Shown here piece by piece: positions 8,667 to 59,540 of a stretch of DNA of 64,000 bases. The stretch spans positions 19,123 through 83,122 of the forward strand of contig JAZNSL010000056.1 in the NCBI GenBank assembly GCA_045591225.1. Reading direction: 5' to 3'. Each line of letters starts with the position of its first letter. Positions within the stretch are counted from its first letter, which is position 1. The notes beneath the pieces were generated by a model that worked only from the letters and a program-made list of their open reading frames with translations, did no database searches and was not told the origin of the DNA. The translations under genes were made by a program, and so were the position numbers. This stretch comes from Acutalibacteraceae bacterium (GTDB lineage Bacteria; Bacillota; Clostridia; Oscillospirales; Acutalibacteraceae).

Positions 8667-9344
8667 TTAAAAAATTAAAGATTCTGCCATTTTTTGCAAT
8701 TCGTTGATAGAAACACTGCCGGAAAGGGTATAAGTGTATTTGTTATCTGAAAAAGTGATAGTGATAATATCTTCATTTTTATAGGTTAAGCCTTGCAGGT
8801 CGCCAATCGTTATGGTGGTATATTGGATATCTTCTGTATCTACTTGCATTTCTATATGTTTTTTCCATCGTTGAGCATAGCGTATTTTTTCGTTCTTTTC
8901 ATTCACATAGACAACCTTATAATATGTGTCCAAATCCGATTCTTCTTCCATCACATACCCCTCCGAGATATACGTAGGGGTGCGTTTTTCTATTTCCGTT
9001 ACCAGCACTCGGGGCTCCTGGTCCACAAAGAGCACCTGGGTAAATCTCTCATAGATTTCAGCGAAGAATTGGAATACCGGCTGGCGCAACGCCTCCACGC
9101 TGACGGTGGTTACGGTGGCCGCCGCCAAGACGGCGATCGCAACAGAGGCTACCCGGCGGCCAACCGTGCCGAACAGCACGTAGAAGCCCCGTTTCCGCCG
9201 GGCAAGCAACCGCTCCATCTGCCGGCGGTATTCCTGGGAGAGCGTTACGCGGGAGAGGGCACCATCGTCCGGTAACAGGGTGTTTTGACGGCGGACGTAT
9301 TCCGCCAGGGCGGCTGTCAGTTTATCGCTTTTATACAGATTCAT
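8667..9344 (-). CDS. putative anti-sigma factor / DUF4367-like membrane protein
   Basis: 225 aa with a single TM (VASVAIAVLAAATVTTV). Overlaps the upstream ECF sigma gene by 14 nt. Confidence 0.55.
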   Translation of the reverse strand: MNLYKSDKLTAALAEYVRRQNTLLPDDGALSRVTLSQEYRRQMERLLARRKRGFYVLFGTVGRRVASVAIAVLAAATVTTVSVEALRQPVFQFFAEIYERFTQVLFVDQEPRVLVTEIEKRTPTYISEGYVMEEESDLDTYYKVVYVNEKNEKIRYAQRWKKHIEMQVDTEDIQYTTITIGDLQGLTYKNEDIITITFSDNKYTYTLSGSVSINELQKMAESLIF

Positions 9345-9891
9345 ACGCTTCTCCTTTCAGCTGGCGGTTCATAGCCTCTGTCAGCATCATGCGGGCTCGC
9401 TCCAGCCGCTTGCGCACGGTGGCGTGGCTGATGCCCAGCACGATGGCGATCTGCTTGTCGCTCAGTTCGTGATAGGCCCGCAATTCCAGCACGGTGCGGT
9501 AGATTTCCGGCATTGCGGTGATGATCTCCACCAATTCCTCCACGGCGATCTGCTCCAGCAGGTCCGGGGTGGTTGCCATACCCCATTCGATGCGGTCATA
9601 GCTGACCCGCTTGTCCGGCTTTTCTTTCCGCAGAATGTCAATGGCGGTGTTCTCGGTAACAACAACGAGAAAACGCTTGGTTTTGTGACTGTCTATTTCC
9701 TCAATTTTGTAAAAACTATTGATGACCTTGATAAAGGCATCTTGCACCGCTTCTTCTGCCAGATGCTCGTTTTGCAGTTTTTGGTAGGCCACGTATTTCA
9801 TCAGCGGGGAATACAGGTGATAGAGTTGTTCAAATTTATCTTTATCTTCTTGTGAGTCTAATAAACTTAAATAAAATGATAGCATGTTCAA
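9331..9891 (-). CDS. RNA polymerase sigma-70 family (ECF-type) sigma factor
   Basis: 186 aa. The region 4 HTH reads LSDKQIAIVLGISHATVRKRLERAR, and there is a region 2-like N-terminus. Confidence 0.85.
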   Translation of the reverse strand: MNMLSFYLSLLDSQEDKDKFEQLYHLYSPLMKYVAYQKLQNEHLAEEAVQDAFIKVINSFYKIEEIDSHKTKRFLVVVTENTAIDILRKEKPDKRVSYDRIEWGMATTPDLLEQIAVEELVEIITAMPEIYRTVLELRAYHELSDKQIAIVLGISHATVRKRLERARMMLTEAMNRQLKGEAYESV

Positions 9892-10878: not shown

Positions 10879-11487
10879 ATGAGTAACACAAGTCTTGCCA
10901 ATAGAATAAAAGAGCAAATTAATCGCTCTAAATATGGGACAGTATTTGTTTCTGTGGATTTTGCTGAATATGCAGACAAGAGTAGAATTGGCGTGATTTT
11001 GTCACGTCTTGAAGCAGATGGGATGATTCGTCGCATTTTGCGTGGGGTCTATTATAAACCCGAATACAGTCAATTCCTTCAAGAATATATTGCTCCGCTT
11101 CCGGATGATGTTGCACATGCTATTGCACGAAATTATGGGTGGACAATCGTTCCTTGTGGAGATACCGCATTAAATCTTTTAGGATTGTCCACACAAATCC
11201 CTGCAGCTTGGGTTTATGTGAGTGATGGTAAATACGAGAAATATTCTTACGAAAACACAACCATTCAGTTTAAGCATACAACTAACAAAGAGATTTCTAA
11301 ACTTTCGTATAAAACAGCATTGGTCGTTCAAGCACTAAAAGCTTTGGGAAAAGAAAATGTTAAAGATGCAATGATTAAAAAATTACAGTCTACCTTGACT
11401 TTGCCTGAAAAAGAGGCAATGTTGCTGGAGGCAAAAGCAGCAACATCATGGGTCTATGAATATATTAAATTGATTTGTAGAGGTTAA
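10879..11487 (+). CDS. abiEi: AbiEi-family antitoxin (type IV TA/abortive infection)
   Basis: 202 aa. The N-terminal wHTH-like segment is GTVFVSVDFAEYADKSRIGVILSRLEADGMIRRILRGVYYKP. The gene sits 4 nt upstream of the AbiEii gene. Confidence 0.7.
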   Translation: MSNTSLANRIKEQINRSKYGTVFVSVDFAEYADKSRIGVILSRLEADGMIRRILRGVYYKPEYSQFLQEYIAPLPDDVAHAIARNYGWTIVPCGDTALNLLGLSTQIPAAWVYVSDGKYEKYSYENTTIQFKHTTNKEISKLSYKTALVVQALKALGKENVKDAMIKKLQSTLTLPEKEAMLLEAKAATSWVYEYIKLICRG

Positions 11488-11491
11488 ACTT

Positions 11492-12490
11492 ATGCGTAAC
11501 ATAGCTAAATTGAGCGAAAAAGAGCGAAAGGCGCTCTTTCAAAATACAGCTGCAAAGATGGGACTTACAAATGCCATTATCGAAAAAGATTTTTGGGTTT
11601 GTTTTATGCTAGACTATTTGTTCCATCGTTGTAAGTGGAAAGATAATATTGCATTTAAAGGCGGTACAAGCCTTTCGAAGTCCTATAGTCTCATTGAGCG
11701 TTTTTCTGAAGATATCGATTTAATTCTGGATTGGAGAGTTATTGGTTTTTCTATAAATGAGCCGTGGGAAGAGCGTAGTAATACCAAGCAAGATGTTTTT
11801 AACAAAGAGGCAAATAGGCGTACTGAGGAATTTTTAAAGGAAACCTTTATGCCTCGAATGATTTCTGATCTACAAGAAGAACTAAACACGTCTATCAATT
11901 GTTATATTGAAGAAACAGACCCTCAAACGGTGGTGTTTGCGTACGATCGTAGCTTTGATGATTCTGCCATTTTGCCGGTTATTCGTCTTGAAATTGGTGC
12001 TTTAGCAGCATGGACTCCAGCGGAGCATCTTCCCATTACATCGTATGCGGCCAAACAATATCCGCAATTGTTTCAGGAACCTAGTACAAGCGTTTTAACA
12101 GTGCTCCCTAAACGGACTTTCTGGGAAAAGGTTACTATTTTACATCGCGAAGCATATAGACCTGACGATAAAGCATTTCCGCCGCGGTATTCTCGGCATT
12201 ACTATGATTTGTATTGTATGATGAATTCTCCAGTGAAAGAATCTGCTTTTGCTGACATTGATCTGTTGACAAAAGTTGTAGAGTTTAAAGAGAAATTCTA
12301 TCGTTGCTCTTGGGCCCGATATGATGAAGCCAAAGTAGGAACGATGAAACTGCTGCCTCCCGAAAGAAATCTACCGGTTTTGAGAGATGACTATAATCAT
12401 ATGCAAAATATGATATTTGGTGATAAACCTGATTTCGATGTGATTTTGCAGGGCGTTGGACAACTTGAGAAAGAAATAAATGCGCTTTGA
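11492..12490 (+). CDS. abiEii: AbiEii/AbiGii-family nucleotidyltransferase toxin
   Basis: 332 aa. FKGGTSLSKSYSLIERFSEDIDL is the characteristic NTase motif of DUF1814/AbiEii. Confidence 0.8.
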   Translation: MRNIAKLSEKERKALFQNTAAKMGLTNAIIEKDFWVCFMLDYLFHRCKWKDNIAFKGGTSLSKSYSLIERFSEDIDLILDWRVIGFSINEPWEERSNTKQDVFNKEANRRTEEFLKETFMPRMISDLQEELNTSINCYIEETDPQTVVFAYDRSFDDSAILPVIRLEIGALAAWTPAEHLPITSYAAKQYPQLFQEPSTSVLTVLPKRTFWEKVTILHREAYRPDDKAFPPRYSRHYYDLYCMMNSPVKESAFADIDLLTKVVEFKEKFYRCSWARYDEAKVGTMKLLPPERNLPVLRDDYNHMQNMIFGDKPDFDVILQGVGQLEKEINAL

Positions 12491-12569: not shown

Positions 12570-13502
12570 ATGAGTGATTTGTATATCAATAAGTGCAAAG
12601 CGTTCATAGGTTTTATGCTTTCGCAACAACAGTGGTCTGGTATCACACAAGCCAATATTGATTCTTGGATAAGCAATTTTAAAGGGCTGAGCCAAGAGGA
12701 ACAAAAGTTGGTTTATAAGTTACTTACAAACATTATATACTTTTCCGAAAATGATATTGTAGATGCGTTGAAAATGGGAGTCTATAAATGTTTGTCATAT
12801 GGGAGTATCCTTGCAAGACAAAAAGAATCCAATTTTTCAACAAGTCCGCATACTTTGCAGAGTGTTCATAATTCCAATGTGAACAAGGCGTGTTTTGTTC
12901 CTTTGCTAGATAGTGGTGGACCTCATGAAAGTGCAAACAATATGTGTCGCATATTAGTACAGCAAGGGATTATTCCTAGTGGAAAATCAATGTTTTTGGA
13001 TCAAGTTCCTGCATTGTTGCGGTCGGGTCAAGTAAATAATTTGGTGATAGTCGACGATTGTGTAGGTAGTGGAGATCAATTGAGGACATTTTGGGAAGAA
13101 GCAAGAGTTATTGACGAAGGCGTTTCGGTTTCTATAAGAGAATTGTGTGAAAAGTACCACGCAAATGTTAACTACCTTACTTTATTTGGGTACAATAAAA
13201 GTATTGCTGACTTAAGGAGTGAGTTTCCGGGTTTAAATATTTTTTGTGTGCGTGAACTTAACGATCAACATCGGGTGTTTTCTGCTTCTTCATATATGTG
13301 GGAGAATGAAGAAGAGAGAATCAAAGCCTTTACTTTATTTAATTCACTTGCCCAAAATGCTGGAATACCCATATATGGACATAAGGATTTGGATTTTGCT
13401 TTTATTATGCATAAAACTATTCCTGATTGGTCTCTTCCTATATTTTGGAAAGAGAATAGCGATTGGAAACTGTTGCTGAGGAGGAAAAATTCTCATGACT
13501 AA
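12570..13502 (+). CDS. phosphoribosyltransferase-like (PRTase-fold) protein
   Basis: The PRPP-loop-like motif is LVIVDDCVGSGDQL. I chose start ATG 12570 for RBS spacing (ggaagga). The stop overlaps the next gene (ATGACTAA). Confidence 0.55.
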   Translation: MSDLYINKCKAFIGFMLSQQQWSGITQANIDSWISNFKGLSQEEQKLVYKLLTNIIYFSENDIVDALKMGVYKCLSYGSILARQKESNFSTSPHTLQSVHNSNVNKACFVPLLDSGGPHESANNMCRILVQQGIIPSGKSMFLDQVPALLRSGQVNNLVIVDDCVGSGDQLRTFWEEARVIDEGVSVSIRELCEKYHANVNYLTLFGYNKSIADLRSEFPGLNIFCVRELNDQHRVFSASSYMWENEEERIKAFTLFNSLAQNAGIPIYGHKDLDFAFIMHKTIPDWSLPIFWKENSDWKLLLRRKNSHD

Positions 13503-15420
13503 TCAATACAACCCTTTTAAAGAAAATCGCACCGAGCAAATGCGCGATCTATGGAAATATTATGTACCTTTCCCAGGATTGGATGCTGCGGGGAAACCTT
13601 TAGTAGTAGAGGGCGGTCGTGGAAGTGGGAAAACTATGTTTTTTCAATGCAATTCTTGGCGCCAAAAAATCCTCGAGTTCCAAAAGAGTAGTAAGCCCAT
13701 TACTAATCTCATTGATAGCGAAGACTTCATAGGTATTTATTATCGTGTTGATACGACATTTGTATCATCAATGCGTGAGCGCGAAGAAGAGAATTGGGGA
13801 GCTATTTTTGAAACGTATTTAGGGATATGCATTTTGAAAGAGATTCTCGATTTGATTAGCACTCTAAATCAAAGTATGGCATTGAACGAAAGCGCTTTAT
13901 CTGATTTCTCGCTGGCATTTTCCAAAAAATTAAACACAAATAGTACTACGGATTCAATCGAGGCGTTTCGAAAGGATTGCGATGTTTATTTAGACATCAT
14001 AGAGGATAAGATAAATGGCTCCGAAACATTATCAAATCTAAGGTGTATAAATGCCAACCGATTTATCACGGATGTATGTGTTGCAACCAGAGAATTGCTG
14101 GGAGAAGAAGAGTTACTGTTTAAGATTTTTATCGATGAATACGAAACATTGCAAGAATATCAACAAAAAATAGTTAACACGTTGATAAAGCATAGTTCAC
14201 TTCCTGTGATTTTTAACATTGGATTACGTCCGGAAGGAATGAAAACAGCGGAGACTATTTCTGAGACGGAAACGATTGAAGCACCTCATGATTATGAATT
14301 GCTATTACTAGGGTTTGATCAAGACCAGTATCCTCAAATAATTAAAGCTATCTGTCAAAAACGTATTGCACTGGGAAAAGAACAGGGCAAAATACCTGAA
14401 TCTGCTTCTGATGATATCGAGTTTTATCTAGGAAACTATTCACTGGAGGAGGAATTGGAAAAGATTAATCAAACTAGCAAATCATTGCCTCACATAGAGA
14501 AACTACGCAAACTGATTTTGGAAAGAGCACCAGAGGAAGGAATCGCTGAGTATGATGTAGAGCAATATTGTCGAGTATTATGTGACGAAGCTCCCATATT
14601 AAATTCTCGAATGCACTACGCTTTGTTGTGTAAAAAAACGCAGTATACTCCGAGCATTCAAGATTTGTATGCATTTTATACAACTCTTGATAAAAGGTAC
14701 AGTGATTGGTTGCATAACAGGAAAAACGGCGTGATTTATTTGTTGTGCAAAGAGACTAAGCGTGACAAAATGTATTTTGGTTTTGATGTTTTTTCGGCAT
14801 TGTCTTCGAACATTGTTAGATATTTCTTAGAACTTTGCGAGCAGTCGTTTAAAATTGCCTTCTTGAACGATTACGATTGGACTACGAGAATTCCTCCAGA
14901 AATACAAACAGAGGCGGCACGTTACGTAAGCGAGTACAAAATTGTTGATATTGCTGGATATGAACCGTACGGAAAAGAACTGCGAATATTTGTTCAATAT
15001 TTGGGCCAAATGTTTAACAAATTGCATACGGCAGAAGATAGCACGTTAGGAGAACCGGAGCCTAATCATTTTTTTACCAAAGATTTATCGTTACCTGATG
15101 AGTCTAGAAAAAAGATCGCATCTGCAATTATGTGGAACGTCTTGCAAGAGGGAGAAACTACCAAGAAGAAGCAATCAAAATTGTCTCCTGAAACCGTGGA
15201 CTATTATTTGAATAAAATTTACGTTCCGTATTTTGGAATATCCTATCGCAATCAGCGGAAAATATTCCTTTCGGTTGATATTTTGCAAGAGCTTTTTTCT
15301 GGAAATGAAGAATTGGCTACATCTGGATTCAAAAAATTCTTCAGGGGAGATTCGGTGCCTGAGGCGGATGGTAGCCAACTTAATTTTTTCAATGTGGGGA
15401 CGGAGGAGAACGATGATTAA
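13495..15420 (+). CDS. P-loop NTPase (AAA+/STAND-like), 641 aa
   Basis: Walker A is VVEGGRGSGKTMF and Walker B-like is LFKIFIDEYETL. It has 8-nt start/stop overlaps with both neighbours. Confidence 0.65.
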   Translation: MTNQYNPFKENRTEQMRDLWKYYVPFPGLDAAGKPLVVEGGRGSGKTMFFQCNSWRQKILEFQKSSKPITNLIDSEDFIGIYYRVDTTFVSSMREREEENWGAIFETYLGICILKEILDLISTLNQSMALNESALSDFSLAFSKKLNTNSTTDSIEAFRKDCDVYLDIIEDKINGSETLSNLRCINANRFITDVCVATRELLGEEELLFKIFIDEYETLQEYQQKIVNTLIKHSSLPVIFNIGLRPEGMKTAETISETETIEAPHDYELLLLGFDQDQYPQIIKAICQKRIALGKEQGKIPESASDDIEFYLGNYSLEEELEKINQTSKSLPHIEKLRKLILERAPEEGIAEYDVEQYCRVLCDEAPILNSRMHYALLCKKTQYTPSIQDLYAFYTTLDKRYSDWLHNRKNGVIYLLCKETKRDKMYFGFDVFSALSSNIVRYFLELCEQSFKIAFLNDYDWTTRIPPEIQTEAARYVSEYKIVDIAGYEPYGKELRIFVQYLGQMFNKLHTAEDSTLGEPEPNHFFTKDLSLPDESRKKIASAIMWNVLQEGETTKKKQSKLSPETVDYYLNKIYVPYFGISYRNQRKIFLSVDILQELFSGNEELATSGFKKFFRGDSVPEADGSQLNFFNVGTEENDD

Positions 15421-16327
15421 AGAAGAGTACTCGTTTTGCCATATTGAAGATTATTTGTATGATAATATCGATTTGCTTATTGCAGGATTTGCAACCGCGG
15501 AGGAACGAAGCGGTTATTTTTCAGAATTATGGACAATCAAGAACAAAGATGTCCTCTTCCTTATGTTAGACGGCAACGAAACTGTTGTGTACCGATTTGT
15601 TCGTAATAACAATGTTGTGATGAAGGGTAGATGTGATCTTTGCGTTGGATTACCAAGGATATTAAGCCAAATTGGTATTGTTGAAAAAGAGGTATTACTT
15701 GATATGTCAAGCCTTGATAATGTATTGATCATGTTCATCACTAAACAATTGTTGACGAAAGTAACTCCCCGATCTTTTTTTGCATCGTATATTAGACCTG
15801 AAAAATATGTTAGTGAATCAGGAAATATAGGTTATGAATTATGTCAACAAATCGGCGCTGTTGATGCAGTCCCTGGCTTTGCAAAAAGAGAAACTGATAA
15901 TCAAACCTTATGTGCTTTTCTGGGCTTTGAAGGCGTTCGGTTAAAAGGCGTTTTGGAAGCTGTACACAGTTTTGAAAAATTAATACCTATTGTGGCTTTC
16001 CCTTCCGGCACACCACAATGGTATAACGTCACAATGTGGAATAGTATGGACATCCTTCAAAGCGAGGGGAAAAACCTCTCTGTTCACAAGTGTTATTCGG
16101 AAAGTGTATTTGAGGCGTTTGACCTTCTAAATAGCACTATCTCGCAAGATGAGACCGTTGTCTTGGCACCACTTGGAACGAGACCACATTCTATGGCTTG
16201 TGCCATTTATGCGTGCCATCATGGAGCCACGAGAATAGTATATGATTTTGTAGTAGAGAATGATCGTCGAGCAATGGGGATTGCAGACATAACTGTTTAT
16301 CATCTTTCTTCGTTTATTAAATCATAG
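15413..16327 (+). CDS. hypothetical protein, third gene of the operon
   Basis: 304 aa from MIKEEYSFCH, with RBS ggaggag and an ATGATTAA overlap with the ATPase gene. I recognise no motif with confidence. Confidence 0.55.
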   Translation: MIKEEYSFCHIEDYLYDNIDLLIAGFATAEERSGYFSELWTIKNKDVLFLMLDGNETVVYRFVRNNNVVMKGRCDLCVGLPRILSQIGIVEKEVLLDMSSLDNVLIMFITKQLLTKVTPRSFFASYIRPEKYVSESGNIGYELCQQIGAVDAVPGFAKRETDNQTLCAFLGFEGVRLKGVLEAVHSFEKLIPIVAFPSGTPQWYNVTMWNSMDILQSEGKNLSVHKCYSESVFEAFDLLNSTISQDETVVLAPLGTRPHSMACAIYACHHGATRIVYDFVVENDRRAMGIADITVYHLSSFIKS

Positions 16328-16344
16328 GTAAAGGGGGTGAGGAT

Positions 16345-17406
16345 ATGGATTATAGCAAGTTCTATACTCCGCCTGAAATCGCAACTGCTCTAGTTAAGGA
16401 GCTTTCTATTCCTGCACCACAAAAAATCGTTGATATTTGTTGTGGAAGTTGCAATTTGCTTTTTGCAGCTAAAAAGCGATGGGCTGAAGCAAAACTATAT
16501 GGAGTGGATGTAGCAGAACAGTGCTTTACTGAAGATGTGATGTTTGAAAAAGGGGATGGCAGACAATTTGCAATTAAGCATCCCCGAGAATTTTCTTTGG
16601 TTGTGGCCAATCCTCCTTTTGACTATGTCAAGAGAAAGAAAGAATTTCCAAAACTATTCACGCAAGAGTTTGAGGATATTTCTACTTCTCGTTTGGAAGT
16701 AGAAATGCTAATAGCTAATTTGAAACTTTTGCAACCAGCTGGAGTTTTGTTGGTTATTGTGCCAAGCAGTTTGGTTGAAGCCAAAACGCATCAAAAAATC
16801 AGAAAAGTTGTTGCAGAGCATTATTTCGTTGAAAGCATAATAAAACTTGATGAATCCACTTTTGGTGCTTCCAAAATCAATAGTTACGCATTGATAATAC
16901 ATAATGAATTGCCAAATAACCAAACAACAAAATTGGGACATTCAGTCGGAAACCGTATCTCATATACAGCGTCTCTTGGGAGTGATAGCCTTAAAGAAGG
17001 CAATTGGACCATTGGTAATGTGCATAACGGTTTGCTTACTATGGAAATTAAACGAGGAAATATCTCTAGCGCTTCTTTTCTCACTAGAGGTCAACCCATT
17101 TTGCATACTGCCAAATGTAGCAGCCGTTGGAAACCTAGCAAAAGATATATTTCAACGAAAGTTGTTCCTACCGTTTTTGCGGAAACAGGAGATATAGTCG
17201 TGAGCCGAATTGGTAAATCGGCTGGACAATGGTGTGTGTATAATGGCCCCAAAACTCCAATTTCGGATTGTTTATATCGTATCAAGGATCCTGATGGTTC
17301 AATAGCAAATTTGATCAGTGGAAAAACTTTTGATAGGGCTTTAAAAGGGGTTGCAACGAGATATATAACTATAGACGATTTATGTATGTGGTTATCGAGT
17401 CAGTAA
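16345..17406 (+). CDS. N6-adenine DNA methyltransferase (gamma class, TaqI/Eco57I-like)
   Basis: FYTPPEIA, motif I VDICCGSCNLL and motif IV VVANPPFDY are present. The C-terminal ~150 aa are a plausible target-recognition domain. Confidence 0.8.
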   Translation: MDYSKFYTPPEIATALVKELSIPAPQKIVDICCGSCNLLFAAKKRWAEAKLYGVDVAEQCFTEDVMFEKGDGRQFAIKHPREFSLVVANPPFDYVKRKKEFPKLFTQEFEDISTSRLEVEMLIANLKLLQPAGVLLVIVPSSLVEAKTHQKIRKVVAEHYFVESIIKLDESTFGASKINSYALIIHNELPNNQTTKLGHSVGNRISYTASLGSDSLKEGNWTIGNVHNGLLTMEIKRGNISSASFLTRGQPILHTAKCSSRWKPSKRYISTKVVPTVFAETGDIVVSRIGKSAGQWCVYNGPKTPISDCLYRIKDPDGSIANLISGKTFDRALKGVATRYITIDDLCMWLSSQ

Positions 17407-17926
17407 AAGGCTAAAAATTCTTATAGATGGCCACTAAAAGAGGCGACAACTACATATGCGACATGGCTTGATAAACGCTCGATTCTCAACATTTCTAACA
17501 GTGTATAAGTTTATATAACTCTACGTTTTTCTGTGCGAAAACGGCGTAGAGAAAGCTAGTGAAAAGTTTGCAACAAAGGGTATCTTGCTACAAAAAAGCC
17601 ACCCAGCGGTGAGTCCTTTTGGGCTTATCGCTGCGTGCTTTTTATCGCGCATTCTTCTTGTACGCTATGGTATATGTTTACCAATCACACTTTGCTGCTT
17701 TGTGGCTATTGCCATATTACAATCGTGTGCGAGTTGCGTGATATGTTCTTTTAATATCTTGTCTTCTATATTGAATTGATATATCGCATAATGTGAAACG
17801 ACTTTAAAATTATTATGGAAATTTGGACTAAATAAGTTGATATATTTGACGGAATTTGCTAATATTGTACTAAATGATTCTGAAGCGTCACATCTGTTTA
17901 TGGAAAATGTTATGAGGAGGTTCCAA

Positions 17927-19126
17927 ATGAATCAGGAAGCTAAATTACTGGATGCTTTTAACCAAAAAGCATTTCAAGAGGAACTAACATCTGTTCGCTT
18001 GAAAATTGAATCTGAATTGAATACCTTTCTAACATATTTGAAAAAGCGATTATTACCAGAGCAGAAACTGTTTGACAACATTGAATCCCGTATCAAATCA
18101 TTGGATAGTTTTAAGGAGAAGATACATAGAAAAGATTATCTTCATATTTGGGCAATAGAGGATGATATAGTAGCGAATCAACGTCTTATTGCTACAAACT
18201 TACCTGACTTGATTGGTTTTCGGATAAATTGCTTTTTCTGGACAGATGAAAGTAAAATATATAAAATTCTTGAAGAATACTATAAGGAAGACAATTTCCC
18301 CAATTTTCAACTTGATTTTTCTGAGAATAAAACGCAGAAAAATGGACATACAATTTACAAACTTACAGGGAAATACTCAAACCCATTCGATGGGGATAAA
18401 GCGTATAACTTTGAAATACAGATAAAGTCAATTATGCATAACATCTGGGGTGAGGTTGATCATAAAACTATTTTTAAGAGTAGGGAATATGATGCGGACT
18501 GTTCAAGTAAAAAAGTAATTACCGAAGAGTTGTTTCACATCTTACAAGCATCTGATAAACAACTACTTACTTTATTGGGCAGAAAAAACGAAGAAAAGCG
18601 TTTGATATATTCACTTTTCTACAGTCAAACTAAGGAACAAATGATGAAAAAGTGTGGGACAGATATTTTGGCATCACATTACACAGGCTTTTTTGATTTT
18701 TTTGAAAAACACGAACCAACATATAGTTGCATTAAAAAATATGTTGCGCACACTCTTTTGGGAAAACCATATAATCGAGAATTACTGAATAAACTAGAAC
18801 CTAATGAAAGAATATCTCGTCTCCAAGCATCAATTTCTCGTGAGTTTTATCAGTATAATTTGCGGTGTATATTCTGTATTTTTGATTTGTTATACTCAAC
18901 AATTGATACTCCAGATCCCCTTGAGGAGGATTTGTTCAAGAACTTTCTAACTCATTTATCCGCATGGGCAATTGAGTTCGCCGGCGTGGGAGAAGATGAA
19001 GACTGTGAGGAGTTTGATGAGTTTGATTCTGACGATCTAAAGTCTGATGAAACGGCTTATAAAGATTCCACTGAAGATATTCTTAGATTTCTGAGTCAAA
19101 GGATAGGGGGGCGGAAAAATGATTGA
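17927..19126 (+). CDS. RelA/SpoT-homologue (small alarmone synthetase-like nucleotide pyrophosphokinase) with acidic C-terminal tail
   Basis: Synthetase motifs are IESRIKSLDSFKEKIHRK, DLIGFRINCF and FEIQIKSIMHNIWGEVDHKTIFK. The tail is EDEDCEEFDEFDSDD. RBS gaggagg lies 6 nt before ATG 17927. Confidence 0.7.
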   Translation: MNQEAKLLDAFNQKAFQEELTSVRLKIESELNTFLTYLKKRLLPEQKLFDNIESRIKSLDSFKEKIHRKDYLHIWAIEDDIVANQRLIATNLPDLIGFRINCFFWTDESKIYKILEEYYKEDNFPNFQLDFSENKTQKNGHTIYKLTGKYSNPFDGDKAYNFEIQIKSIMHNIWGEVDHKTIFKSREYDADCSSKKVITEELFHILQASDKQLLTLLGRKNEEKRLIYSLFYSQTKEQMMKKCGTDILASHYTGFFDFFEKHEPTYSCIKKYVAHTLLGKPYNRELLNKLEPNERISRLQASISREFYQYNLRCIFCIFDLLYSTIDTPDPLEEDLFKNFLTHLSAWAIEFAGVGEDEDCEEFDEFDSDDLKSDETAYKDSTEDILRFLSQRIGGRKND

Positions 19127-20150
19127 TATAAAACAACACGGTAAACATCATCTGGTCCAAACTCAAAAAACCGTTGAATGGCTAGTCACTCATACGGAAG
19201 TAGCGGTATTTGATCCCATTACTTTTCAAGGTTATCAAAGGCAGATAGATGATAAACATTGCGCTAGAATTGTAGATTTCCTGAAAAAAGATGATTTCTT
19301 CCTTCCTACAGCAATTGTTTGTGCGGTCAATGGAGTTTTAAACGAGGATACCGTTTTGCGCATTGTAGATGGACAGCACCGAGTGAAAGCGTTTGAAATG
19401 CTTCGAACTTGTGATACAGATCGTTTTCAACAGATAAAAGATTTCGAAGTACCGGTTATTATTTTAGTTGATGTTGATGAAACAACAGAAATAGATACTT
19501 TTATTACCATTAACAAGACTTCTAAGAAAGTTGATACTTCTCTTGCACTGGTTTTGAGAAATAAAATTAATAAATATTCTGATCCAGAAACCCTTTCTAT
19601 GTCTAAGGCTGAGTATGTAGCAGTGGAACTAGCACAAGAATTATGTTTCAACGAAACACTATCTACTTTGTGGACTAATCGGATCTCATTTGATGGTCCA
19701 CCTAAAAATTCTTATCAGTTAATAAGTCTTAATGCCTTCGTTAAATCAACTCGACAACTACTGAGCAGATTACATCGTAACCAGCTCATTTCGTTGTCGT
19801 GGACAGATAGGAAAGAATTGGATGAATGTCTCAATGCTAGTCGTGATATAATTCTCTTCATTTGGAACACTATCCGTAATAAATGGCCAAAATTATTTGG
19901 CTCATACATTGAGGAACAACGAATCATTCAGGGGGCTATTGGGTATTCGGCGTTTAATCGTGTAATTATGAGTTTAATTGATTCTTATCATATTAATGAT
20001 GTGGATACTCTGCTTAAAAAGTTTGCTTATGCTATTAGTAACATTTCGATTTCTGAGGAGAAATGGCTACCTGGCGGAGAGTTTTCTAAATATTCCTCCG
20101 AATCAGGCTATCGCATTGTTGCTCAGGAATTGATTCGTAGTATGGAGTAG
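19119..20150 (+). CDS. DGQHR-domain protein (DndB/ParB-Srx superfamily)
   Basis: Contains FQGYQRQIDDKHCARIVDF ... LRIVDGQHRVKAFEML. The start overlaps the upstream stop (ATGATTGA). Confidence 0.7.
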   Translation: MIDIKQHGKHHLVQTQKTVEWLVTHTEVAVFDPITFQGYQRQIDDKHCARIVDFLKKDDFFLPTAIVCAVNGVLNEDTVLRIVDGQHRVKAFEMLRTCDTDRFQQIKDFEVPVIILVDVDETTEIDTFITINKTSKKVDTSLALVLRNKINKYSDPETLSMSKAEYVAVELAQELCFNETLSTLWTNRISFDGPPKNSYQLISLNAFVKSTRQLLSRLHRNQLISLSWTDRKELDECLNASRDIILFIWNTIRNKWPKLFGSYIEEQRIIQGAIGYSAFNRVIMSLIDSYHINDVDTLLKKFAYAISNISISEEKWLPGGEFSKYSSESGYRIVAQELIRSME

Positions 20151-33377: not shown

Positions 33378-34463
33378 ATGAATGTTTTTATTAGTTGGTC
33401 TAAAGCAAAAAGTATGCAATATGCGCTCAAAACAAAGGCACTTTTAGAAAGTCTTGACCCTTCTATAAATGCATTTGTTTCAGAAGTAGACATACATGGT
33501 GGAGAAGATGTTCAAGAAAAAATAATACATAAAATTATCGAATGTGATAAGTTGGTTCTATGTTTCACTAAGGAAAACAAAAAATCTCCATGGTTGCTAT
33601 TTGAAGCGGGATATGCAAGAGGATTACGTAAAACTGTTATTCCAATTCTTTTTGACGATGATCCCAATTGGCATTCATGGGTCGATAATCCAATGAATAT
33701 AGCACGTGAAATTAATTTCAACGACAAAAATTTTTCTAATGTTTTCTTTGACTGCTTTGGAATTGTTAGTTCCGAGAAAAACAAACAAAAGTTACAAAGA
33801 TATAGGAAAACCATCCTTGATATTAAAGATAAATTTCGCCAAGTTGATATTCAGTGTGAGGATTTCGTAGATAAATTAACACATAATGAAACTTTTATTG
33901 TGGAAAATCCTTTTTATAGAGGCAGAACTGCATTTTTTCTGTCCGGATTTGAAAGCTTTGATCTATATAAAACGATAATCGAATCATTTATGTACACAGG
34001 AAAATATCTGTGGATATATGGGCGAAAAAACATGAAGTTATTTGGGGGAAGTTTCAACTCATTTTTTAAATATCTAGAAGAAAAGGCCTCTTTTGATGGG
34101 ATGGAAGGAATTGATTTTAGGTGTTTGTTCCTCGACCCCGATTCGCCTGAAGTTGAAAAGGCGCATCTTCAACAAGACATTTTCAAATCTGAATTAACTG
34201 CAACTATATTGCGAGCAAAGTCAGTGGTCCAAGACAATCTACAATTACAGAAATGTTTTAGATTATACTCCAATAAGCGAGAAGAAATCATTATTCGTCT
34301 TGATAATTGCATTATTTATGCCAGGCCCAATTTTGATGCAAATGGATATCCGCAATTATTAACTAATAGCGGATTTGAGGTTTTTAGTGTAAAATCCGAT
34401 AAAGGAAAAGAATGTATTAAGAAATATGAAAATGTATGGAATGCAGCAAAAAATATGTTTTAA
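33378..34463 (+). CDS. TIR-domain protein with uncharacterised ~230-aa C-terminal domain
   Basis: N-terminus VFISWSKAKS...DKLVLCFTKENKKSPWLLFEAGYARG shows the bacterial TIR pattern, including the conserved Glu in FEAG. Confidence 0.65.
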   Translation: MNVFISWSKAKSMQYALKTKALLESLDPSINAFVSEVDIHGGEDVQEKIIHKIIECDKLVLCFTKENKKSPWLLFEAGYARGLRKTVIPILFDDDPNWHSWVDNPMNIAREINFNDKNFSNVFFDCFGIVSSEKNKQKLQRYRKTILDIKDKFRQVDIQCEDFVDKLTHNETFIVENPFYRGRTAFFLSGFESFDLYKTIIESFMYTGKYLWIYGRKNMKLFGGSFNSFFKYLEEKASFDGMEGIDFRCLFLDPDSPEVEKAHLQQDIFKSELTATILRAKSVVQDNLQLQKCFRLYSNKREEIIIRLDNCIIYARPNFDANGYPQLLTNSGFEVFSVKSDKGKECIKKYENVWNAAKNMF

Positions 34464-48528: not shown

Positions 48529-51500
48529 ATGGAAAATGAAATTGTAAAAGATATTGCTAATGAACCTACGAACCTTGAGCAGACAACTATGTGTGTTGGT
48601 GAATCTGCTTTTTTTCACAATCCGATGGGTGATGAAACCACCGTTGATAATGAGACAACTTGGAGCAGTGACAATCCAGCTGTCGCGACTGTTAATGAAG
48701 TAAGTGGTCTTGTTTATGCGCAGCAAGAAGGCGAAACGGTTATTCGAGCAAATGGCGCAGGTCAGAGTTACGCGGTTACTGTGACTAATCGTGTGCTTGT
48801 AGAGGATATCATTTTAAGTGACACACATCTTGAACTCAATAGGGGAGATAGACGGGGTCTTAGCGCCACAATTTGTCCTTCGAATGCATCAAACAAAGGG
48901 ATTCGATGGTATAGCGGTAATGAGAATGTTGTTGTCGTTCATTCGTCTACGGGTTGCGTAACAGCCAAAAACGCCGGCAGAACTTACGTGTATGCTACTG
49001 CAAAAGACGAAAGCGGAATTCGATCTTGCTGTGAAGTTGTTGTGAAACAGACTGTCCCCAATAATGCTGAAGAAACTCCTGACAACAAAGTGCCGAATAG
49101 TACATTCGCAGACCCAGTTGATGTGTTTAGTGGAGCGCATTTGCTGAAAAATACTGTAATGACTTTGTTCGGCGGTCAAAGCGTACAGCTGATTGCTCAT
49201 TATAATTCCACTTATCTTGCGTGTGGAGTGTTCGGTTCTGGCTGGTATCACAATTTTGAAAAGCGAATTGTAATTGATGGCTCTGACGCGTTTGTTTATA
49301 ACAATCCTTCTATTTTCTCGCATTATATTGCAGAAAATGAGCAATGCACAACTTTTGTTTGTAACAGTGCAAATAAAAACGGGTATGTGCTCACTGTTGA
49401 TTATGCCAGTCAGTATCCGTATGTTGTCAATTGCAATTTTGCGAGAACTGAATACTATAACACTGAGGGTAATCTTGCAAAAATTGTTGATCATCAAGGG
49501 CATGAAATTACGATTGAGTATGCAGAGCTTCAAGTTGCGATTACTGATGGGGTATCCGGCAAAAAGATTTATCTAGATAAAGATGCGAATGGTAAGGTTG
49601 TTTGTGTACGTGATGATGCAGATAGATCCGCAACGATGACATATAACGGTAATCTGCTTTCTTCTATCAGTGATGTGAATGGTAACACCCTGACCTTTGT
49701 CTATGACGAAGAGGGCAGAGTGAAGAAGGGTTATGATTCCAAGGGCATTTGCTATTTTGAAAATACATACGATGAATACGGTCGTGTGATTCAGCAAAAA
49801 GATGCTATTCCCGGCTCTGCAAAGTCGGTGTTTGTTTACGATGATAATCTTCGAGTCACTACTGACCGAAATGGTAAACAGAGCGTCCGTGAATATGATG
49901 GCAATGGGCTTCTGATTCGTTATACCGATGAGAATGGTAATATCATCACCTACGAGTACGACGAACATTGTAATGTTGTCAAAGAGACTGATGCTATTGG
50001 AAATTCTGTAACGAAAGTATACAATGATTTTAACAAGCCTACTGAAATTACGGATAAAAACGGTAACAAGACTTGCTTCACCTATGATGCCAATGGTAAC
50101 GTGACAAAGATTCAGTATCCTGCAATTAATGGCCTGGTACCTGAGGAGACTTTCGTTTATAATAGTTGCAATCAGCTGATTCAACACTCTGACATTCGAG
50201 GGACTGTAACTACCTATACCTATGACGCCAATGGGATGCCGAAAACTAAGAAAGTGGGCAGTAAGAATGCGATTGTTTATTCTTATGAGGATGGTCTGCT
50301 AAAATCTCAGACCGACGCCATGGGTAACACGACAAGATATACTCACAACGCTATTGGACAGGTAAGCACTGTTACTGCTGCAGATAACAAAGTAACGCAA
50401 TATGTCTATGATAACTATGGAAATCTGCTTCGTTTGATCGATGCTGACGGAAACACTGTGACTACTGTCTATGATGGCAACTATCAAAAGGTTTCTGTGA
50501 CCGATGCTAATGGAAACACAACTGAATATTCTTACAATGGCAATATGAAGAACGATGTTGTTATGCTACCTGATGGTCATGTTATTCGATACGAGTTTGA
50601 TGGCGAGGATAGAGTTGTCAAGATTACCGATCAAGCAAATAATGTTACTGATATTACCTATGACAATGGGGGGAGAGTGGTCTCTAAACGGTTTGCCGAC
50701 GGCGCGCTCGTTCAGTATGAGTATGATGCAGTTGGCAACGTGGTAAAAGAAACGAACCCTAAGGGTGCCGTTACTGTTAAGACTTATGATAACCTCGGTA
50801 ACATTTTGAGTGTCACTGATGCTGAAGGTAATGTGACCACCTATGAGTACAATGCTATGTCGAAGGTTGTGAGGAGCGTAAATGCAAAAGCTGGTGCTAC
50901 CGTATATGTCTATTCCAAGTCCGGTGACCTTCTCTCTGAGACGGATGCCATGGGCCACACCAAAACCTATACTTACGATGCGTATGGCAACCGACTCACG
51001 ATGACGGATGCACGGAATTATACGACCACTTATACCTACGATCAGAACAACAATTTGCTCACGGTCAAGGATCCGCTGAATCACGTTACCACCTATACCT
51101 ACAACTGCCTCAATCAGTGTGTGTCTGTTAAGGATGCTCTGAACAATACGATTCAGTATGGCTACGATGCTCTCGGCAGACGAACGACCATTACTGATGC
51201 CCGTGGCAATGTGTTTACGACCACCTATGATGGCAACGGTAACGTTATCAAGACCACCGATGCTAAGGGGAATATCGTCAGTGAAACGGTGTACAACTGT
51301 TTGAACTTGCCTCTTACTGTTACCGATGCGATGGGCAAGGTAACCACCTACACCTACAATGCACTCGGCAAAGTGGAGAGTGTCACTGACTCTATGCATC
51401 ATCGTCAGGAATATTCGTACAATTCCCGTGGTCAGAACACTGCTGTTCTGGATTCGGCAAACAATACCAGCACGGCTACTTATGACCTGCTTGGTAATGT

Positions 51501-53523
51501 GATTCGTCTCGCGGGACCTCTCGGTGGTGCTACCAATTATACCTACGATAATATGGGGCGTCTCGTATCTGAGTCCACCGTTTCTGGTGGTACCAAGAAC
51601 TACGAATACAATGAGTTGAATATCCGCAAGAAGATCACTAACGCACGGGGGCAGATCCGCCAGGTATTCCATGATGCCATGGGTCGAATCACCGGCTATA
51701 CTTCTCCCGAAGGTGCGGTGAGTTATACTTATGATGCCAACGGCAACGTGTTGACGGTGACGGATAGCCACGGCACGATTACGAGAACTTATGATGCTTT
51801 GAATCGTATTGCAAGTTATACCGATACCTATGGTAAAATGATTCGGTATGAGTATGACGCAGTGGGGAACCTGTCCAAGCTAATTTATCCCGATAATACG
51901 GCAGTAACCTATGCGTATGATGCTAACCATAATTTGATTCGGGTTACTGACTGGGCGAATCGAGTGACTGCTTATACCTACGACGCGAATAATCGAATCG
52001 TTGAAGTGACCAAGCCGGATGGTAGCGTAACTACTACTACCTATGACAATATGCAGCGTGTCACCTCTACGGTAGTAAGAGCAATGTCCGGTGCTGTTAT
52101 TGCCGGATTTGAGTACACCTATGACAATCTGTCGAGAATTGTGGAAGAAAAACATCTTGCAGATGGTGTTAAATTGTGCTATATTTATGATAACCTGAGT
52201 CGTGTGATCAAGCGTACCGTGAAGTGCCTGGAGAGCAACACGGTGTTGTCTGAGGAAACCTTCACCTACGATGCGGCAGGTAACATCACCGATGCACCCG
52301 ACAGTTGTTTCCAGTATGACACCAACAACCGACTGGTAGTGTTTAATGGCCATGCAGTAACCTACGACCTTGACGGCAATATGCTGAATGATGGTGAGCG
52401 GAACTTTAGTTACGATTCGGCTAACCGACTGGTAACCGCCGACAGTCATACGTACACCTACAACGCCGAGGATATGCGCATCCGCAATTGTTGCGAGAGT
52501 GGTGAGGACACGACTTATACCCATGATGCCAGTGTAAAACTTAGCAGATTGCTCTGCAAGACTACCAACGGTGTTGTTACCAAGTATGTCTATGGACGTG
52601 GACTCATCGGTGAGGAGGTAAGCGGCACATTTAAGACTTACCACTGCGATTGCAGAGGCAGCACCATTGCAATCACCGATGCAAGCGGAAGTATCACCGA
52701 TACCTTTGCATACGATACCTATGGAAAGATGATTGAGCATTGTGGCAATAGTGCGGTTATTTTCGGCTACAACGGCCGGGATGGTGTCGTGACGGATGAT
52801 AACGGGCTGATCTATATGCGTGCCCGGTATTACAGCCCCGATATGAAGCGATTCATCAATGCGGATATTGTTGCCGGCGAGATCTCCAACGCCATCACCC
52901 TCAACCGCTTCTCCTACGCCAACGGCAACCCGGTTTCCTTCGTGGATCCGTTTGGACTGAGTGCAGAGAGGGGCAGTGTAGATTTGTCAACTGTGTTGTC
53001 TGCAGATGACTTGAAAAAACTTAAACAGCTCTATGATTTAACCTCTCTTGAGCTAGATGCTTTTGATATAAGCCTACAAGTATTGCACTCTTCTCTCAAA
53101 GATGGCCTTAATAAGGCTGTTCGACCAAACAATATCCCTAAAGGTGTGTGGCAGAAGCAAATAGACGCTGATTTGAAATGGTTAGATGATATTCTTGGAC
53201 CAGCATCTAAACTTTCAAAGACGCTTGATACAGTATCTATGCCATTGATTGATGCAACTATGGTTTTTGTTGATGCAGGGATTGGATATTATGAAAATAT
53301 TCAAAATAATGAATCTTCACAGGAAGTATATACCGACCTTGCAATAGATCTAGGGGTAGGTGCAACTACTGCTGGTCTCTCTTTTATAGTTACTTCGGCG
53401 ATTACAGGATCTGCTTTTGGTACAGCCTGTCCGGTCGTAGGAAATGTCTTAGGTTTTCTTGTGGGTCTGGCGATAGGCGTTGGAGGATATTATTTAGGTC
53501 AGGCACTGGATGACGCAATGTAA
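48529..53523 (+). CDS. RHS/YD-repeat polymorphic toxin with N-terminal Big_2 domains and glycine-zipper C-terminal toxin domain
   Basis: 1664 aa. Two Ig-like Big_2 units come first (SSDNPAVATVNE.., GIRWYSGNENVVVV). Then FADPVDVFSGAH and dozens of YD repeats (YTYDANGN, YEYDAVGN...). The core ends ..YANGNPVSFVDPFGL (52945-52959). The following 187-aa tail ends in a Gly/Ala-rich hydrophobic segment. Confidence 0.9.
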   Translation: MENEIVKDIANEPTNLEQTTMCVGESAFFHNPMGDETTVDNETTWSSDNPAVATVNEVSGLVYAQQEGETVIRANGAGQSYAVTVTNRVLVEDIILSDTHLELNRGDRRGLSATICPSNASNKGIRWYSGNENVVVVHSSTGCVTAKNAGRTYVYATAKDESGIRSCCEVVVKQTVPNNAEETPDNKVPNSTFADPVDVFSGAHLLKNTVMTLFGGQSVQLIAHYNSTYLACGVFGSGWYHNFEKRIVIDGSDAFVYNNPSIFSHYIAENEQCTTFVCNSANKNGYVLTVDYASQYPYVVNCNFARTEYYNTEGNLAKIVDHQGHEITIEYAELQVAITDGVSGKKIYLDKDANGKVVCVRDDADRSATMTYNGNLLSSISDVNGNTLTFVYDEEGRVKKGYDSKGICYFENTYDEYGRVIQQKDAIPGSAKSVFVYDDNLRVTTDRNGKQSVREYDGNGLLIRYTDENGNIITYEYDEHCNVVKETDAIGNSVTKVYNDFNKPTEITDKNGNKTCFTYDANGNVTKIQYPAINGLVPEETFVYNSCNQLIQHSDIRGTVTTYTYDANGMPKTKKVGSKNAIVYSYEDGLLKSQTDAMGNTTRYTHNAIGQVSTVTAADNKVTQYVYDNYGNLLRLIDADGNTVTTVYDGNYQKVSVTDANGNTTEYSYNGNMKNDVVMLPDGHVIRYEFDGEDRVVKITDQANNVTDITYDNGGRVVSKRFADGALVQYEYDAVGNVVKETNPKGAVTVKTYDNLGNILSVTDAEGNVTTYEYNAMSKVVRSVNAKAGATVYVYSKSGDLLSETDAMGHTKTYTYDAYGNRLTMTDARNYTTTYTYDQNNNLLTVKDPLNHVTTYTYNCLNQCVSVKDALNNTIQYGYDALGRRTTITDARGNVFTTTYDGNGNVIKTTDAKGNIVSETVYNCLNLPLTVTDAMGKVTTYTYNALGKVESVTDSMHHRQEYSYNSRGQNTAVLDSANNTSTATYDLLGNVIRLAGPLGGATNYTYDNMGRLVSESTVSGGTKNYEYNELNIRKKITNARGQIRQVFHDAMGRITGYTSPEGAVSYTYDANGNVLTVTDSHGTITRTYDALNRIASYTDTYGKMIRYEYDAVGNLSKLIYPDNTAVTYAYDANHNLIRVTDWANRVTAYTYDANNRIVEVTKPDGSVTTTTYDNMQRVTSTVVRAMSGAVIAGFEYTYDNLSRIVEEKHLADGVKLCYIYDNLSRVIKRTVKCLESNTVLSEETFTYDAAGNITDAPDSCFQYDTNNRLVVFNGHAVTYDLDGNMLNDGERNFSYDSANRLVTADSHTYTYNAEDMRIRNCCESGEDTTYTHDASVKLSRLLCKTTNGVVTKYVYGRGLIGEEVSGTFKTYHCDCRGSTIAITDASGSITDTFAYDTYGKMIEHCGNSAVIFGYNGRDGVVTDDNGLIYMRARYYSPDMKRFINADIVAGEISNAITLNRFSYANGNPVSFVDPFGLSAERGSVDLSTVLSADDLKKLKQLYDLTSLELDAFDISLQVLHSSLKDGLNKAVRPNNIPKGVWQKQIDADLKWLDDILGPASKLSKTLDTVSMPLIDATMVFVDAGIGYYENIQNNESSQEVYTDLAIDLGVGATTAGLSFIVTSAITGSAFGTACPVVGNVLGFLVGLAIGVGGYYLGQALDDAM

Positions 53524-57719: not shown

Positions 57720-57793
57720 TGGCTGCGGAACTAGGAATCGAACCTAGACAAAGAGATTCAGAGACTCTCGTGCTACCTTTACACAATTCCGCA
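57720..57793 (-). tRNA. trnQ: tRNA-Gln (anticodon CTG)
   Basis: The minus strand folds by hand as TGCGGAA-TT-GTG-TAAAGGTAG-CAC-G-AGAGT-CTCTGAA-TCTCT-TTGT-CTAGG-TTCGATT-CCTAG-TTCCGCA-G-CCA. It is 74 nt with a perfect 7-bp acceptor and 5-bp T stem, a U1-A72 pair plus G73 typical of bacterial tRNA-Gln, and an encoded CCA. Confidence 0.8.
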
Positions 57794-59370: not shown

Positions 59371-59540
59371 ACTCATTCCCCTTTCGGGTACAGCATAAGC
59401 TTTCACGGGGCGGGATGCAACCGCTTTTGGCTTTTCGGTTGGTTTGATAACCTAATCGGCAGGAATACGAAAACAAAAAGACCGCCCATGGGGCACCCTC
59501 CGCAAGGAAGGTGCCCCAATTAAGTTTGCCCTTACGGGCA

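Follow-up and report, generated by a model that had tools for sequence, protein, structure and literature searches.

A four-gene cassette in an Acutalibacteraceae genome

The stretch of DNA analysed here, hereafter the window, covers 64,000 nucleotides (nt) of contig JAZNSL010000056.1 (positions 19,123 to 83,122, forward strand) in the assembly GCA_045591225.1 of an Acutalibacteraceae bacterium. Our subject is a cassette of four closely packed genes within it, here called A, B, C and D, which code for a protein of the phosphoribosyltransferase (PRTase)-like PRTase-CE family, an ORC/Cdc6-like AAA+ ATPase, a stand-alone CARF/SAVED-like protein and an N6-adenine DNA methyltransferase (methylase), respectively. 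The features of the cassette are as follows, with the roles of A to C being predictions (PRPP, phosphoribosyl pyrophosphate; aa, amino acids):

12570..13502, + strand: gene A, PRTase-CE family protein, 310 aa; predicted nucleotide/PRPP-targeting effector
13495..15420, + strand: gene B, ORC/Cdc6-like AAA+ ATPase, 641 aa; predicted ATP-driven sensor or scaffold
15413..16327, + strand: gene C, stand-alone CARF/SAVED-like protein, 304 aa; predicted ligand-binding regulator
16345..17406, + strand: gene D, gamma-class N6-adenine DNA methyltransferase with a C-terminal target-recognition-like domain, 353 aa
17604..17633, + strand: terminator-like hairpin about 200 nt 3' of D, a 13-bp stem followed by a T-run, from a consensus scan

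An earlier reading of this DNA, made from its letters without database searches (the sequence-only reading), had described four tightly coupled genes with two 8-nt overlaps and an 18-nt gap before the last. All four plus-strand open reading frames (ORFs) and both overlaps are indeed present, whereas the gap between C and D measures 17 nt. The stop of A and the start of B overlap in ATGACTAA (13495-13502), with AGGAGGA just 5' of the overlap, and the 8-nt stop/start overlap of B and C, ATGATTAA (15413-15420), is similarly preceded by GGAGGAG. In the 17-nt spacer between the stop of C at 16327 and the start of D at 16345 lies a ribosome-binding site (RBS), GGGGGTGAGGA. The mechanically called ORF of gene A opens at 12480; we take its start as the ATG at 12570, because a GGAAGGA RBS lies 9 nt 5' of that codon and the homologues start at the same residue. 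The hairpin downstream of D is a possible end of the cassette's transcription unit, for which it is weak evidence, because the region holds eight terminator-like sites against 4.5 expected. An Rfam search of the 10-20 kb part of the window found no RNA in the cassette, and no PHROGs family matched A, B or C.

Domain affinities of the four proteins

The motifs singled out in the sequence-only reading are all found in the translations: LVIVDDCVGSGDQL in A; GRGSGKT and IDEYE in B; and FYTPPEIA, DICCGSCNLL and VVANPPF in D. Profile searches place the products of 12570-16327 outside the classical restriction-modification (R-M) and housekeeping families and assign them to three families of conflict systems, namely PRTase-CE, ORC-CDC6-like and CARF6. 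Thus, A matches the Pfam PRTase-CE profile from end to end (PF24390; E 2.2e-48; profile positions 1-253 of 253) and, in PADLOC, the PRTase models of retron type III-A and no others (E 4.8e-20). This family was reportedly defined as a predicted nucleotide-targeting effector by Nicastro, Burroughs, Iyer and Aravind in Nucleic Acids Research (NAR) in 2023. Among 17 homologues, reaching down to about 17-20% identity, nine residues of A are invariant (W33, F37, S121, D162, D163, G168, Q170, P285 and W299), and D162, D163, G168 and Q170 belong to a PRPP-loop-like hhhhDDxxxSGxQ motif, LVIVDDCVGSGDQ. A profile of A retrieved nothing significant from the PDB sequences, the top entry being a uracil PRTase (PDB 2e55, E 1.2) with the PRPP loops in register. 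The loops are also in register in hhalign comparisons with Upp, Apt and Hpt (probability 3-18%), which are a lead only. Housekeeping PRTases were sought in the 1.2 Mb of analysed DNA for a profile-profile test, and none was found there. PRTases are known from retron type III, PsyrTA and Ophion (bioRxiv 10.1101/2025.09.30.679545). In ShosT, PRTase and pyrophosphatase activities are coupled and disrupt purine metabolism (PMC11961720), and its toxicity requires PRPP binding (PMC12961424).

B spans the whole of the Pfam ORC-CDC6-like profile (PF24389; E 2.3e-106; profile positions 1-571 of 571). Its Walker A motif (G40-x-R42-G43-x-G45-K46-T47) and its Walker B residues D214-E215, together with E217, are kept in homologues of 16-27% identity. 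A second block of strong conservation lies near the C-terminus, in residues 518-590, with E522, F526, K557, D569, S583, R585 and K589, of which K557, R585 and K589 are basic. The AlphaFold2 model (mean predicted local distance difference test, pLDDT, of 74.5) has an AAA+ core followed by an all-helical part, and residues 518-590 are modelled at pLDDT <50. The best Foldseek matches of this model, to RdrA of the RADAR system, ORC4, Cdc6, RuvBL and RFC, are all weak (E 4.5e-3 or worse), and a profile of B recovered no significant relatives among the PDB sequences.

The sequence-only reading had left the third gene as an unknown protein; profile and fold matches now make it CARF/SAVED-like. C has no Pfam match and agrees over its full length with the PADLOC model CARF6--CARF_CARF_CARF (PDLC01913; E 8.7e-35). 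CARF6 is said to have been defined by Makarova et al. in NAR in 2020. The AlphaFold2 model of C (pLDDT 83.7; predicted template-modelling score 0.86) comprises two alpha/beta lobes, and the top Foldseek matches in the PDB are all CARF/SAVED proteins: the Sso2081 ring nuclease, Cam1, Csm6, Can2, CalpL and Cad1. Taken by itself, this fold evidence is marginal, since the best E-value is 3.5e-3 (with a probability of up to 1.0). The C orthologue of Desulfitobacterium is labelled a SAVED-domain protein in UniRef. Conserved residues of C include R32, T256 and R286. The C family comprises 494 representative clusters, and among the representatives listed nearly all are stand-alone proteins of about 300 aa.

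As the sequence-only reading had recognised, D belongs to the gamma class of N6-adenine methyltransferases: it matches N6_Mtase (4.1e-14) and Eco57I (1.5e-7) in Pfam and, over its full length, the PADLOC MTase_II model PDLC03285 (E 4.3e-24), and it is a distant relative of M.TaqI in the PDB (E 6e-4). All members of the family share N89-P90-P91-(F/Y), G34 and D55. Among 16 orthologues, the recognition-like half of D (16930-17406 of the window) shows nearly the same level of conservation as its catalytic half (68% against 76% identity and 42% against 44% in the pairs of values obtained), and this domain retains invariant residues even in the proteobacterial homologues.

One alternative for a cassette with such a methylase is a classical R-M system whose nuclease has escaped notice, with DNA cleavage as the output; the poorly modelled C-terminus of B and the N-terminal domain of A are the two places where it might lie. 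The strong conservation of B residues 518-590 in spite of their low pLDDT would suit such a hidden nuclease, as would the roughly 120 uncharacterised N-terminal residues of A. However, Pfam, PADLOC and NCBIfam give no nuclease match for A, B or C, in line with the sequence-only reading, which had seen no nuclease motif in the first three genes. Further, the model of B is helical beyond the AAA+ core, with no nuclease fold among the 50 Foldseek matches listed; the N-terminus of A is invariant only at W33 and F37 and lacks a catalytic-looking constellation; and the invariant acidic pair of the PRPP loop argues for A as the active enzyme. Hence, we consider a concealed nuclease improbable, at well below one chance in several.

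Recurrence of the cassette across genomes, plasmids and metagenomes

The four genes recur together far outside this genome, in genome, plasmid and metagenome loci alike. Among 16 genome loci, located via gene C, 13 have A-B-C-D in the same order and with the same spacing; of the other three, one has A-B-C with the contig ending just after C, one retains only a truncated C and D, and one is a fragment. The identity of D to its orthologues declines in step with that of A, B and C across these loci, from 73% to 44%. Desulfitobacterium dehalogenans has the same four genes adjoining Tn7-like tniQ/rve/tniB genes, and Methylomusa anaerophila has the same set and order with an inserted insertion sequence (IS) element. 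An all-against-all comparison of the flanks (10 kb on either side of the genome loci) found nothing conserved beyond the four genes. The cassette is a self-contained unit, independent of its neighbouring genes.

Distant full-length homologues of B (24-27% identity) occur on 163 plasmid records, 130 of them from Klebsiella and 141 conjugative. The cassette was read in proteobacterial plasmid loci of six genera; the loci comprise plasmids of Klebsiella, Moraxella, Cupriavidus, Paraburkholderia and Diaphorobacter, an Acinetobacter contig and an IMG/VR contig, with these gene orders:

Klebsiella pKPHS2 and Cupriavidus pMTS2: methylase-A-B-C
Moraxella osloensis p4 and the Acinetobacter contig: dUTPase-A-B-C-D
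Paraburkholderia and the IMG/VR contig: A-B-C-D
Diaphorobacter: A-B-C, with D on the opposite strand

The Klebsiella version is exemplified by K. pneumoniae pKPHS2 (CP003224, KPHS_p200520-550), where a methylase gene precedes the PRTase-CE, ORC-CDC6-like and CARF6 genes and B is about 27% identical to that of the window. It lies near the IncFII repA on 130 plasmid records, and its genes are named in RefSeq as three hypothetical proteins and an N-6 DNA methylase. The same version is present at 99.9% identity in four assemblies of Escherichia coli C600/J53 transconjugants, so direct tests in E. coli would be cheap.

A metagenome scan, with a search pattern from a narrow alignment of B (two more diverse alignments being too variable), added 80 loci, with B at 26-82% identity. 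Contig ends cut 19 of these; in each of the 61 that could be assessed, a D-type methylase stands beside A-B-C. Fifty loci have it 3' of the other genes and on their strand, eight have it 3' of them on the opposite strand, and three have it on their 5' side. The methylase is likewise present in every other sufficiently complete PRTase-CE-bearing locus inspected, and a CARF6-type gene directly follows the ATPase gene in all related loci. Members are found in the Firmicutes and in the Alpha-, Beta- and Gammaproteobacteria, and their hosts range from Clostridia of the gut to resistance plasmids of Klebsiella.

An orphan methylase that merely came to rest beside a three-gene CARF6 module could account for D having its own RBS and a 17-nt gap instead of an overlap. 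Against this speak the 61 of 61 assessable metagenome loci with a methylase, its variable position and, in two cases described below, its different family. Moreover, adjacency is not by chance, because about 100 independent loci bring these four families together, and the recent spread of a single clone is excluded, because the B identities extend from 26 to 82%. We therefore regard mere coincidence of neighbours as having next to no probability. Judged from these comparisons, the methylase behaves as a functional part of the set, not a passenger.

Variant and decayed copies

Two plasmids, Bradyrhizobium p183_1 and Moraxella osloensis YV1 p1, bear in front of A-B-CARF6 a non-homologous beta-class N6_N4_Mtase, which belongs to another PADLOC family. 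That an enzyme of the beta class substitutes for the gamma-class methylase argues that DNA methylation itself is needed. Strict methylase linkage combined with one non-orthologous replacement is a clear comparative-genomic sign of methylation being integral to a system devoid of nucleases. At the other end of the cassette, pSymA of Sinorhizobium meliloti has a calcineurin-like metallophosphoesterase at the place of the PRTase, before the ORC-CDC6-like and CARF6 genes, from which we conclude that position A is a swappable effector slot; this variant also encodes a 577-aa protein that has no family assignment. Four loci, from Moraxella, Acinetobacter and two metagenomes, have an optional fifth gene for an all-alpha dUTPase (PF08761, dUTPase_2) directly 5' of the PRTase-CE gene:

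L021, 4326-4991: dUTPase gene
L022, 4293-4931: dUTPase gene
L060, 4533-5000: dUTPase gene
L070, 4284-4988: dUTPase gene

The presence of this optional enzyme points at nucleotides as the probable target of the system.

These variants also bear on whether the cassette belongs to a conflict system at all. PRTases are classically enzymes of biosynthesis and salvage, and two transferases with an ATPase could make up a pathway of DNA or nucleotide modification or salvage, for instance a PRTase-dependent base modification in which methylation is one step. However, the distribution is patchy and crosses phyla, the cassette lies on plasmids and islands, and its GC content is unlike that of the flanks. 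Further, A has relatives among the retron type III-A effectors and gives way to a phosphoesterase in one variant, the CARF family to which C belongs is part of the PADLOC defence model set, and no conserved metabolic genes are linked to the four. A role in such a pathway thus appears very improbable to us.

The decayed copies are informative as to the order of loss. The copy in locus L014 (6656-8509) is reduced to a 5'-truncated C and an intact methylase, and that of Methylomusa (L018, 9938-15038) has an IS21-like element inserted at the 3' end of C, so that it separates C from the methylase. In both, the methylase has outlasted the loss or disruption of A, B or C, the order expected if the methylase protects against the others. 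An alternative reading is that the cassette is primarily an addiction module of mobile elements, in which loss of the element dilutes the methylation, the products of A, B and C poison the cell (post-segregational killing) and phage defence is a side effect at most. R-M systems are known to act as addiction modules. Consistent with this are the methylase retained in decay and the mobile settings: the 163 plasmid records (141 conjugative), the recombinase-bearing island of the window and the Tn7-like genes in Desulfitobacterium. On the other hand, defence is not excluded thereby, as classical R-M systems do both, and many loci sit on contigs of >100 kb. We hold that addiction as the main function is unlikely.

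Proposed mode of action

Hence, we propose that the cassette is an R-M/BREX-like (bacteriophage exclusion) immune or addiction module that operates with no nuclease: methylation would mark self, and the output would be directed at the nucleotide pool instead of DNA. We give this general reading a slightly better than even chance. It is supported by the obligatory methylase with its flexible placement, the translational coupling of A, B and C, the swapping of the effector and the survival of the methylase in decay; in addition, none of the catalytic motifs in A, B and D varies among the homologues. In terms of the components, D would methylate a fixed DNA motif and thereby mark the resident DNA as self, as its family membership and strict linkage suggest. 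B may assemble on DNA in an ATP-driven manner and, probably in concert with D, signal that incoming DNA is unmodified. C, translationally coupled to B, could serve as the ligand-binding gate or adaptor that relays the signal. A would be the output, a PRTase-fold enzyme predicted from its family and from effector swapping to attack the nucleotide or PRPP pool and so halt replication. The sequence-only reading had envisaged much the same, namely self-marking by methylation, an NTPase sensor and a nucleotide-targeting effector; the metallophosphoesterase swap and the dUTPase lend support to that outline, with the mechanism proper being inferred. The wider context fits defence: the cassette sits in a low-GC island beside an AbiE system, most of the plasmids are conjugative (141 of 163) and Tn7-like genes adjoin the Desulfitobacterium copy.

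A more specific version of this proposal is a nuclease-free epigenetic immunity, in which B and its dedicated methylase detect unmethylated or foreign DNA, a cyclase-free CARF/SAVED relay transmits the signal and the PRTase collapses the nucleotide or PRPP pool; in a sub-variant, C reads the breakdown products of methylated nucleotides. We judge this version plausible, at somewhat under an even chance. If true, either form, relay or breakdown-product sensing, would be a new mechanistic class, and one present on clinical Klebsiella plasmids of the carbapenemase era.

Several observations weigh against these proposals. No synthase for the cyclic-nucleotide ligand that a CARF/SAVED sensor would need is encoded in the cassette, and none is conserved nearby according to Pfam, PADLOC and the comparison of flanks. 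Foldseek gave no match at E <=1e-3 for the model of B and likewise none for that of C. The tentative assignment of A as a PRTase comes from profile names and one loop motif, and A has no significant match in the PDB although crystal structures of ShosT have been solved (PMC12961424). The recognition-like domain of D, as far as its conservation indicates, is unusual in showing none of the diversification or shuffling that is the rule in R-M specificity domains, and the Sinorhizobium pSymA variant has no recognisable methylase. A full-text literature search, which did not extend to the two family-defining NAR papers named above, found no description of the cassette and no phage, toxicity or methylome results for any member. 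The weakest points of the model are the ligand and role of C, the reading of DNA methylation by B and the reaction catalysed by A.

Some of these points could be accommodated by a different use of the methylase, in which its product is itself a danger signal. Here, D would not serve to tell self from foreign DNA; it would load the chromosome with N6-methyladenine (m6A), and the breakdown of host DNA by a phage would free m6A nucleotides that bind to C, which in turn would activate the PRTase. A precedent is the PUA-Calcineurin-CE-HAD module, which, according to PMC12871103, binds Dam-derived m6-dAMP and depletes deoxynucleoside triphosphates. The combination of a nucleotide-sensor-like protein with the lack of a cyclase agrees with such a signal, and the absence of hypervariability in the recognition-like domain of D would suit a methylase whose precise target motif is of minor importance. 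However, bulk m6A requires no dedicated methylase with a recognition domain, the beta-class N6_N4 enzyme of two variants may make N4-methylcytosine and hence another ligand, and the ORC/Cdc6-like ATPase is left without an explanation. A danger signal derived from the methylome is accordingly an unlikely account, a shade more so than the addiction module considered above. Our preferred reading, a methylation-marked module whose output falls on nucleotides, would join two ideas that are usually separate, self-marking by methylation and antiviral nucleotide depletion.

Genomic setting in the window

The cassette lies inside a low-GC island that begins near 10 kb and ends near 56 kb of the window, with a GC content of 0.33-0.45 against about 0.55 in the flanks. 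The neighbouring genes and the features at the island's right-hand end are:

10879-12490, + strand: AbiEi antitoxin (DUF6088; PADLOC AbiEi, 3e-64) and AbiEii nucleotidyltransferase toxin (PADLOC, 2.7e-107)
17837-20150, + strand: RelA_SpoT-like nucleotidyltransferase (429 aa; PF04607, 2.2e-12) and DGQHR/DndB/DpdB-like ParB-fold protein (343 aa; TIGR03187, 2.1e-25)
55811-57481, + strand: large serine recombinase with Resolvase, Recombinase and Zn_ribbon_recom domains, at the island end
57720-57793, - strand: tRNA-Gln, after the recombinase

The cassette thus stands between AbiE on its 5' side and the RelA_SpoT-like/DGQHR pair on its 3' side, which agrees with the earlier placement between AbiE and another candidate defence pair. 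AbiE and gene A are 79 nt apart, with no terminator-like site between them. The RelA_SpoT-like and DGQHR genes overlap by 8 nt, are not conserved as a pair with the cassette and could be a separate nucleotide-signalling defence pair. Both sets are neighbours and not parts of the cassette, because the flanks are not conserved. In this window, the cassette is one module of a composite defence island.

The island also carries conflict-type cargo in the form of a 361-aa TIR-domain protein (33378-34463, + strand) and a 1664-aa RHS-repeat protein with Big_2 domains (48529-53523, + strand). A Gut-1 small RNA lies at 59517-59591. Just outside the left edge of the island, on the minus strand at 8667-9891, are a 186-aa sigma factor of the extracytoplasmic function type and an overlapping 225-aa ORF, a possible anti-sigma factor.

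Comparison with known systems

The cassette shares components with several established systems, and membership in retrons, ShosTA, BREX, classical R-M and cyclic-oligonucleotide signalling was rejected because the defining components are missing. From classical R-M (types I-III) it has the methylase with (D/N)PP(Y/F) and S-adenosylmethionine-binding motifs; neither an endonuclease of the PD-(D/E)xK, HNH, PLD or GIY-YIG kind nor HsdR/Res was found. It resembles Type II/III R-M in the gamma-class N6-adenine methylase with a recognition-like domain, in the strict linkage to partners and in the survival of the methylase in decay, and differs in what the methylase is linked to, here an AAA+ ATPase, a CARF-like protein and a PRTase.

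Similarly, the likeness of A to the PRTases of retron type III-A, seen in the PADLOC matches and the preserved acidic pair of the PRPP-loop-like motif, does not extend to the rest of a retron: Pfam found no reverse transcriptase domain in the eight genes scanned, the Rfam search described above found no RNA between 10 and 20 kb, and nothing beyond the four genes is common to the loci. A DprA-like ShosA gene, as in ShosTA, is absent, and the PADLOC matches of A are confined to the PRTase_III-A models. Ophion consists of radical S-adenosylmethionine (rSAM), PHP and PRTase components, and the cassette has no rSAM or PHP partner; DS-32 of DefensePredictor, comprising NADAR and PRTase, is a different gene set.

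By its profile and best fold matches, C is probably akin to the CARF/SAVED proteins of type III CRISPR ancillary modules and of CBASS (cyclic-oligonucleotide-based antiphage signalling systems). In contrast to these, it is not fused to an effector and is linked to a methylase, not to CRISPR. Neither Cas10 nor a CD-NTase or other cyclase is encoded in the cassette or conserved near it, and the adjoining RelA_SpoT-like gene is not conserved. RADAR likewise pairs a large ATPase with a nucleotide-modifying effector, and RdrA is among the best, if weak, fold matches of B (E 5.5e-3 to 8e-3); a deaminase is absent from the cassette, just as a methylase and a CARF protein are absent from RADAR.

BREX offers a parallel in overall plan, with a methylase, an AAA+ ATPase of the ORC/Cdc6 clade and a non-nuclease enzyme as the presumed output. 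Its BrxC is an ORC/Cdc6-type ATPase, and PglZ has been discussed as nucleotide-directed (PMC12839542). However, there is no PglZ among the four proteins or their neighbours and no BrxA, BrxB or BrxL, and the 641-aa B matches no BrxC model. In PADLOC, the match of D to PglX is confined to the catalytic core, where it covers about 110 residues (E 2.9e-6); PglX has about 1200 aa, against the 353 aa of the M.TaqI-like D, and BREX lacks both the CARF/SAVED-like protein and the PRTase. How a system with no nuclease stops phage is a question that the cassette has in common with BREX.

The closest correspondence is with the PRTase-CE/ORC-CDC6-like/CARF6 neighbourhood, a combination that came up again in each of the related loci examined. 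The sequence-only reading had not recognised the gene set as a named system; PADLOC v2 indeed defines no such system, whereas the families themselves were already catalogued in Pfam and PADLOC. The cassette is thus a member of a catalogued kind for which no experimental test was found. It has the PRTase-CE protein, the ATPase with intact Walker motifs, the CARF6 gene after the ATPase gene and the adjacent methylase, the last being a defining feature set in this analysis and not taken from a published definition. A, B and C match the three family models over their full length, and there is no difference at the family level between the cassette and this neighbourhood.

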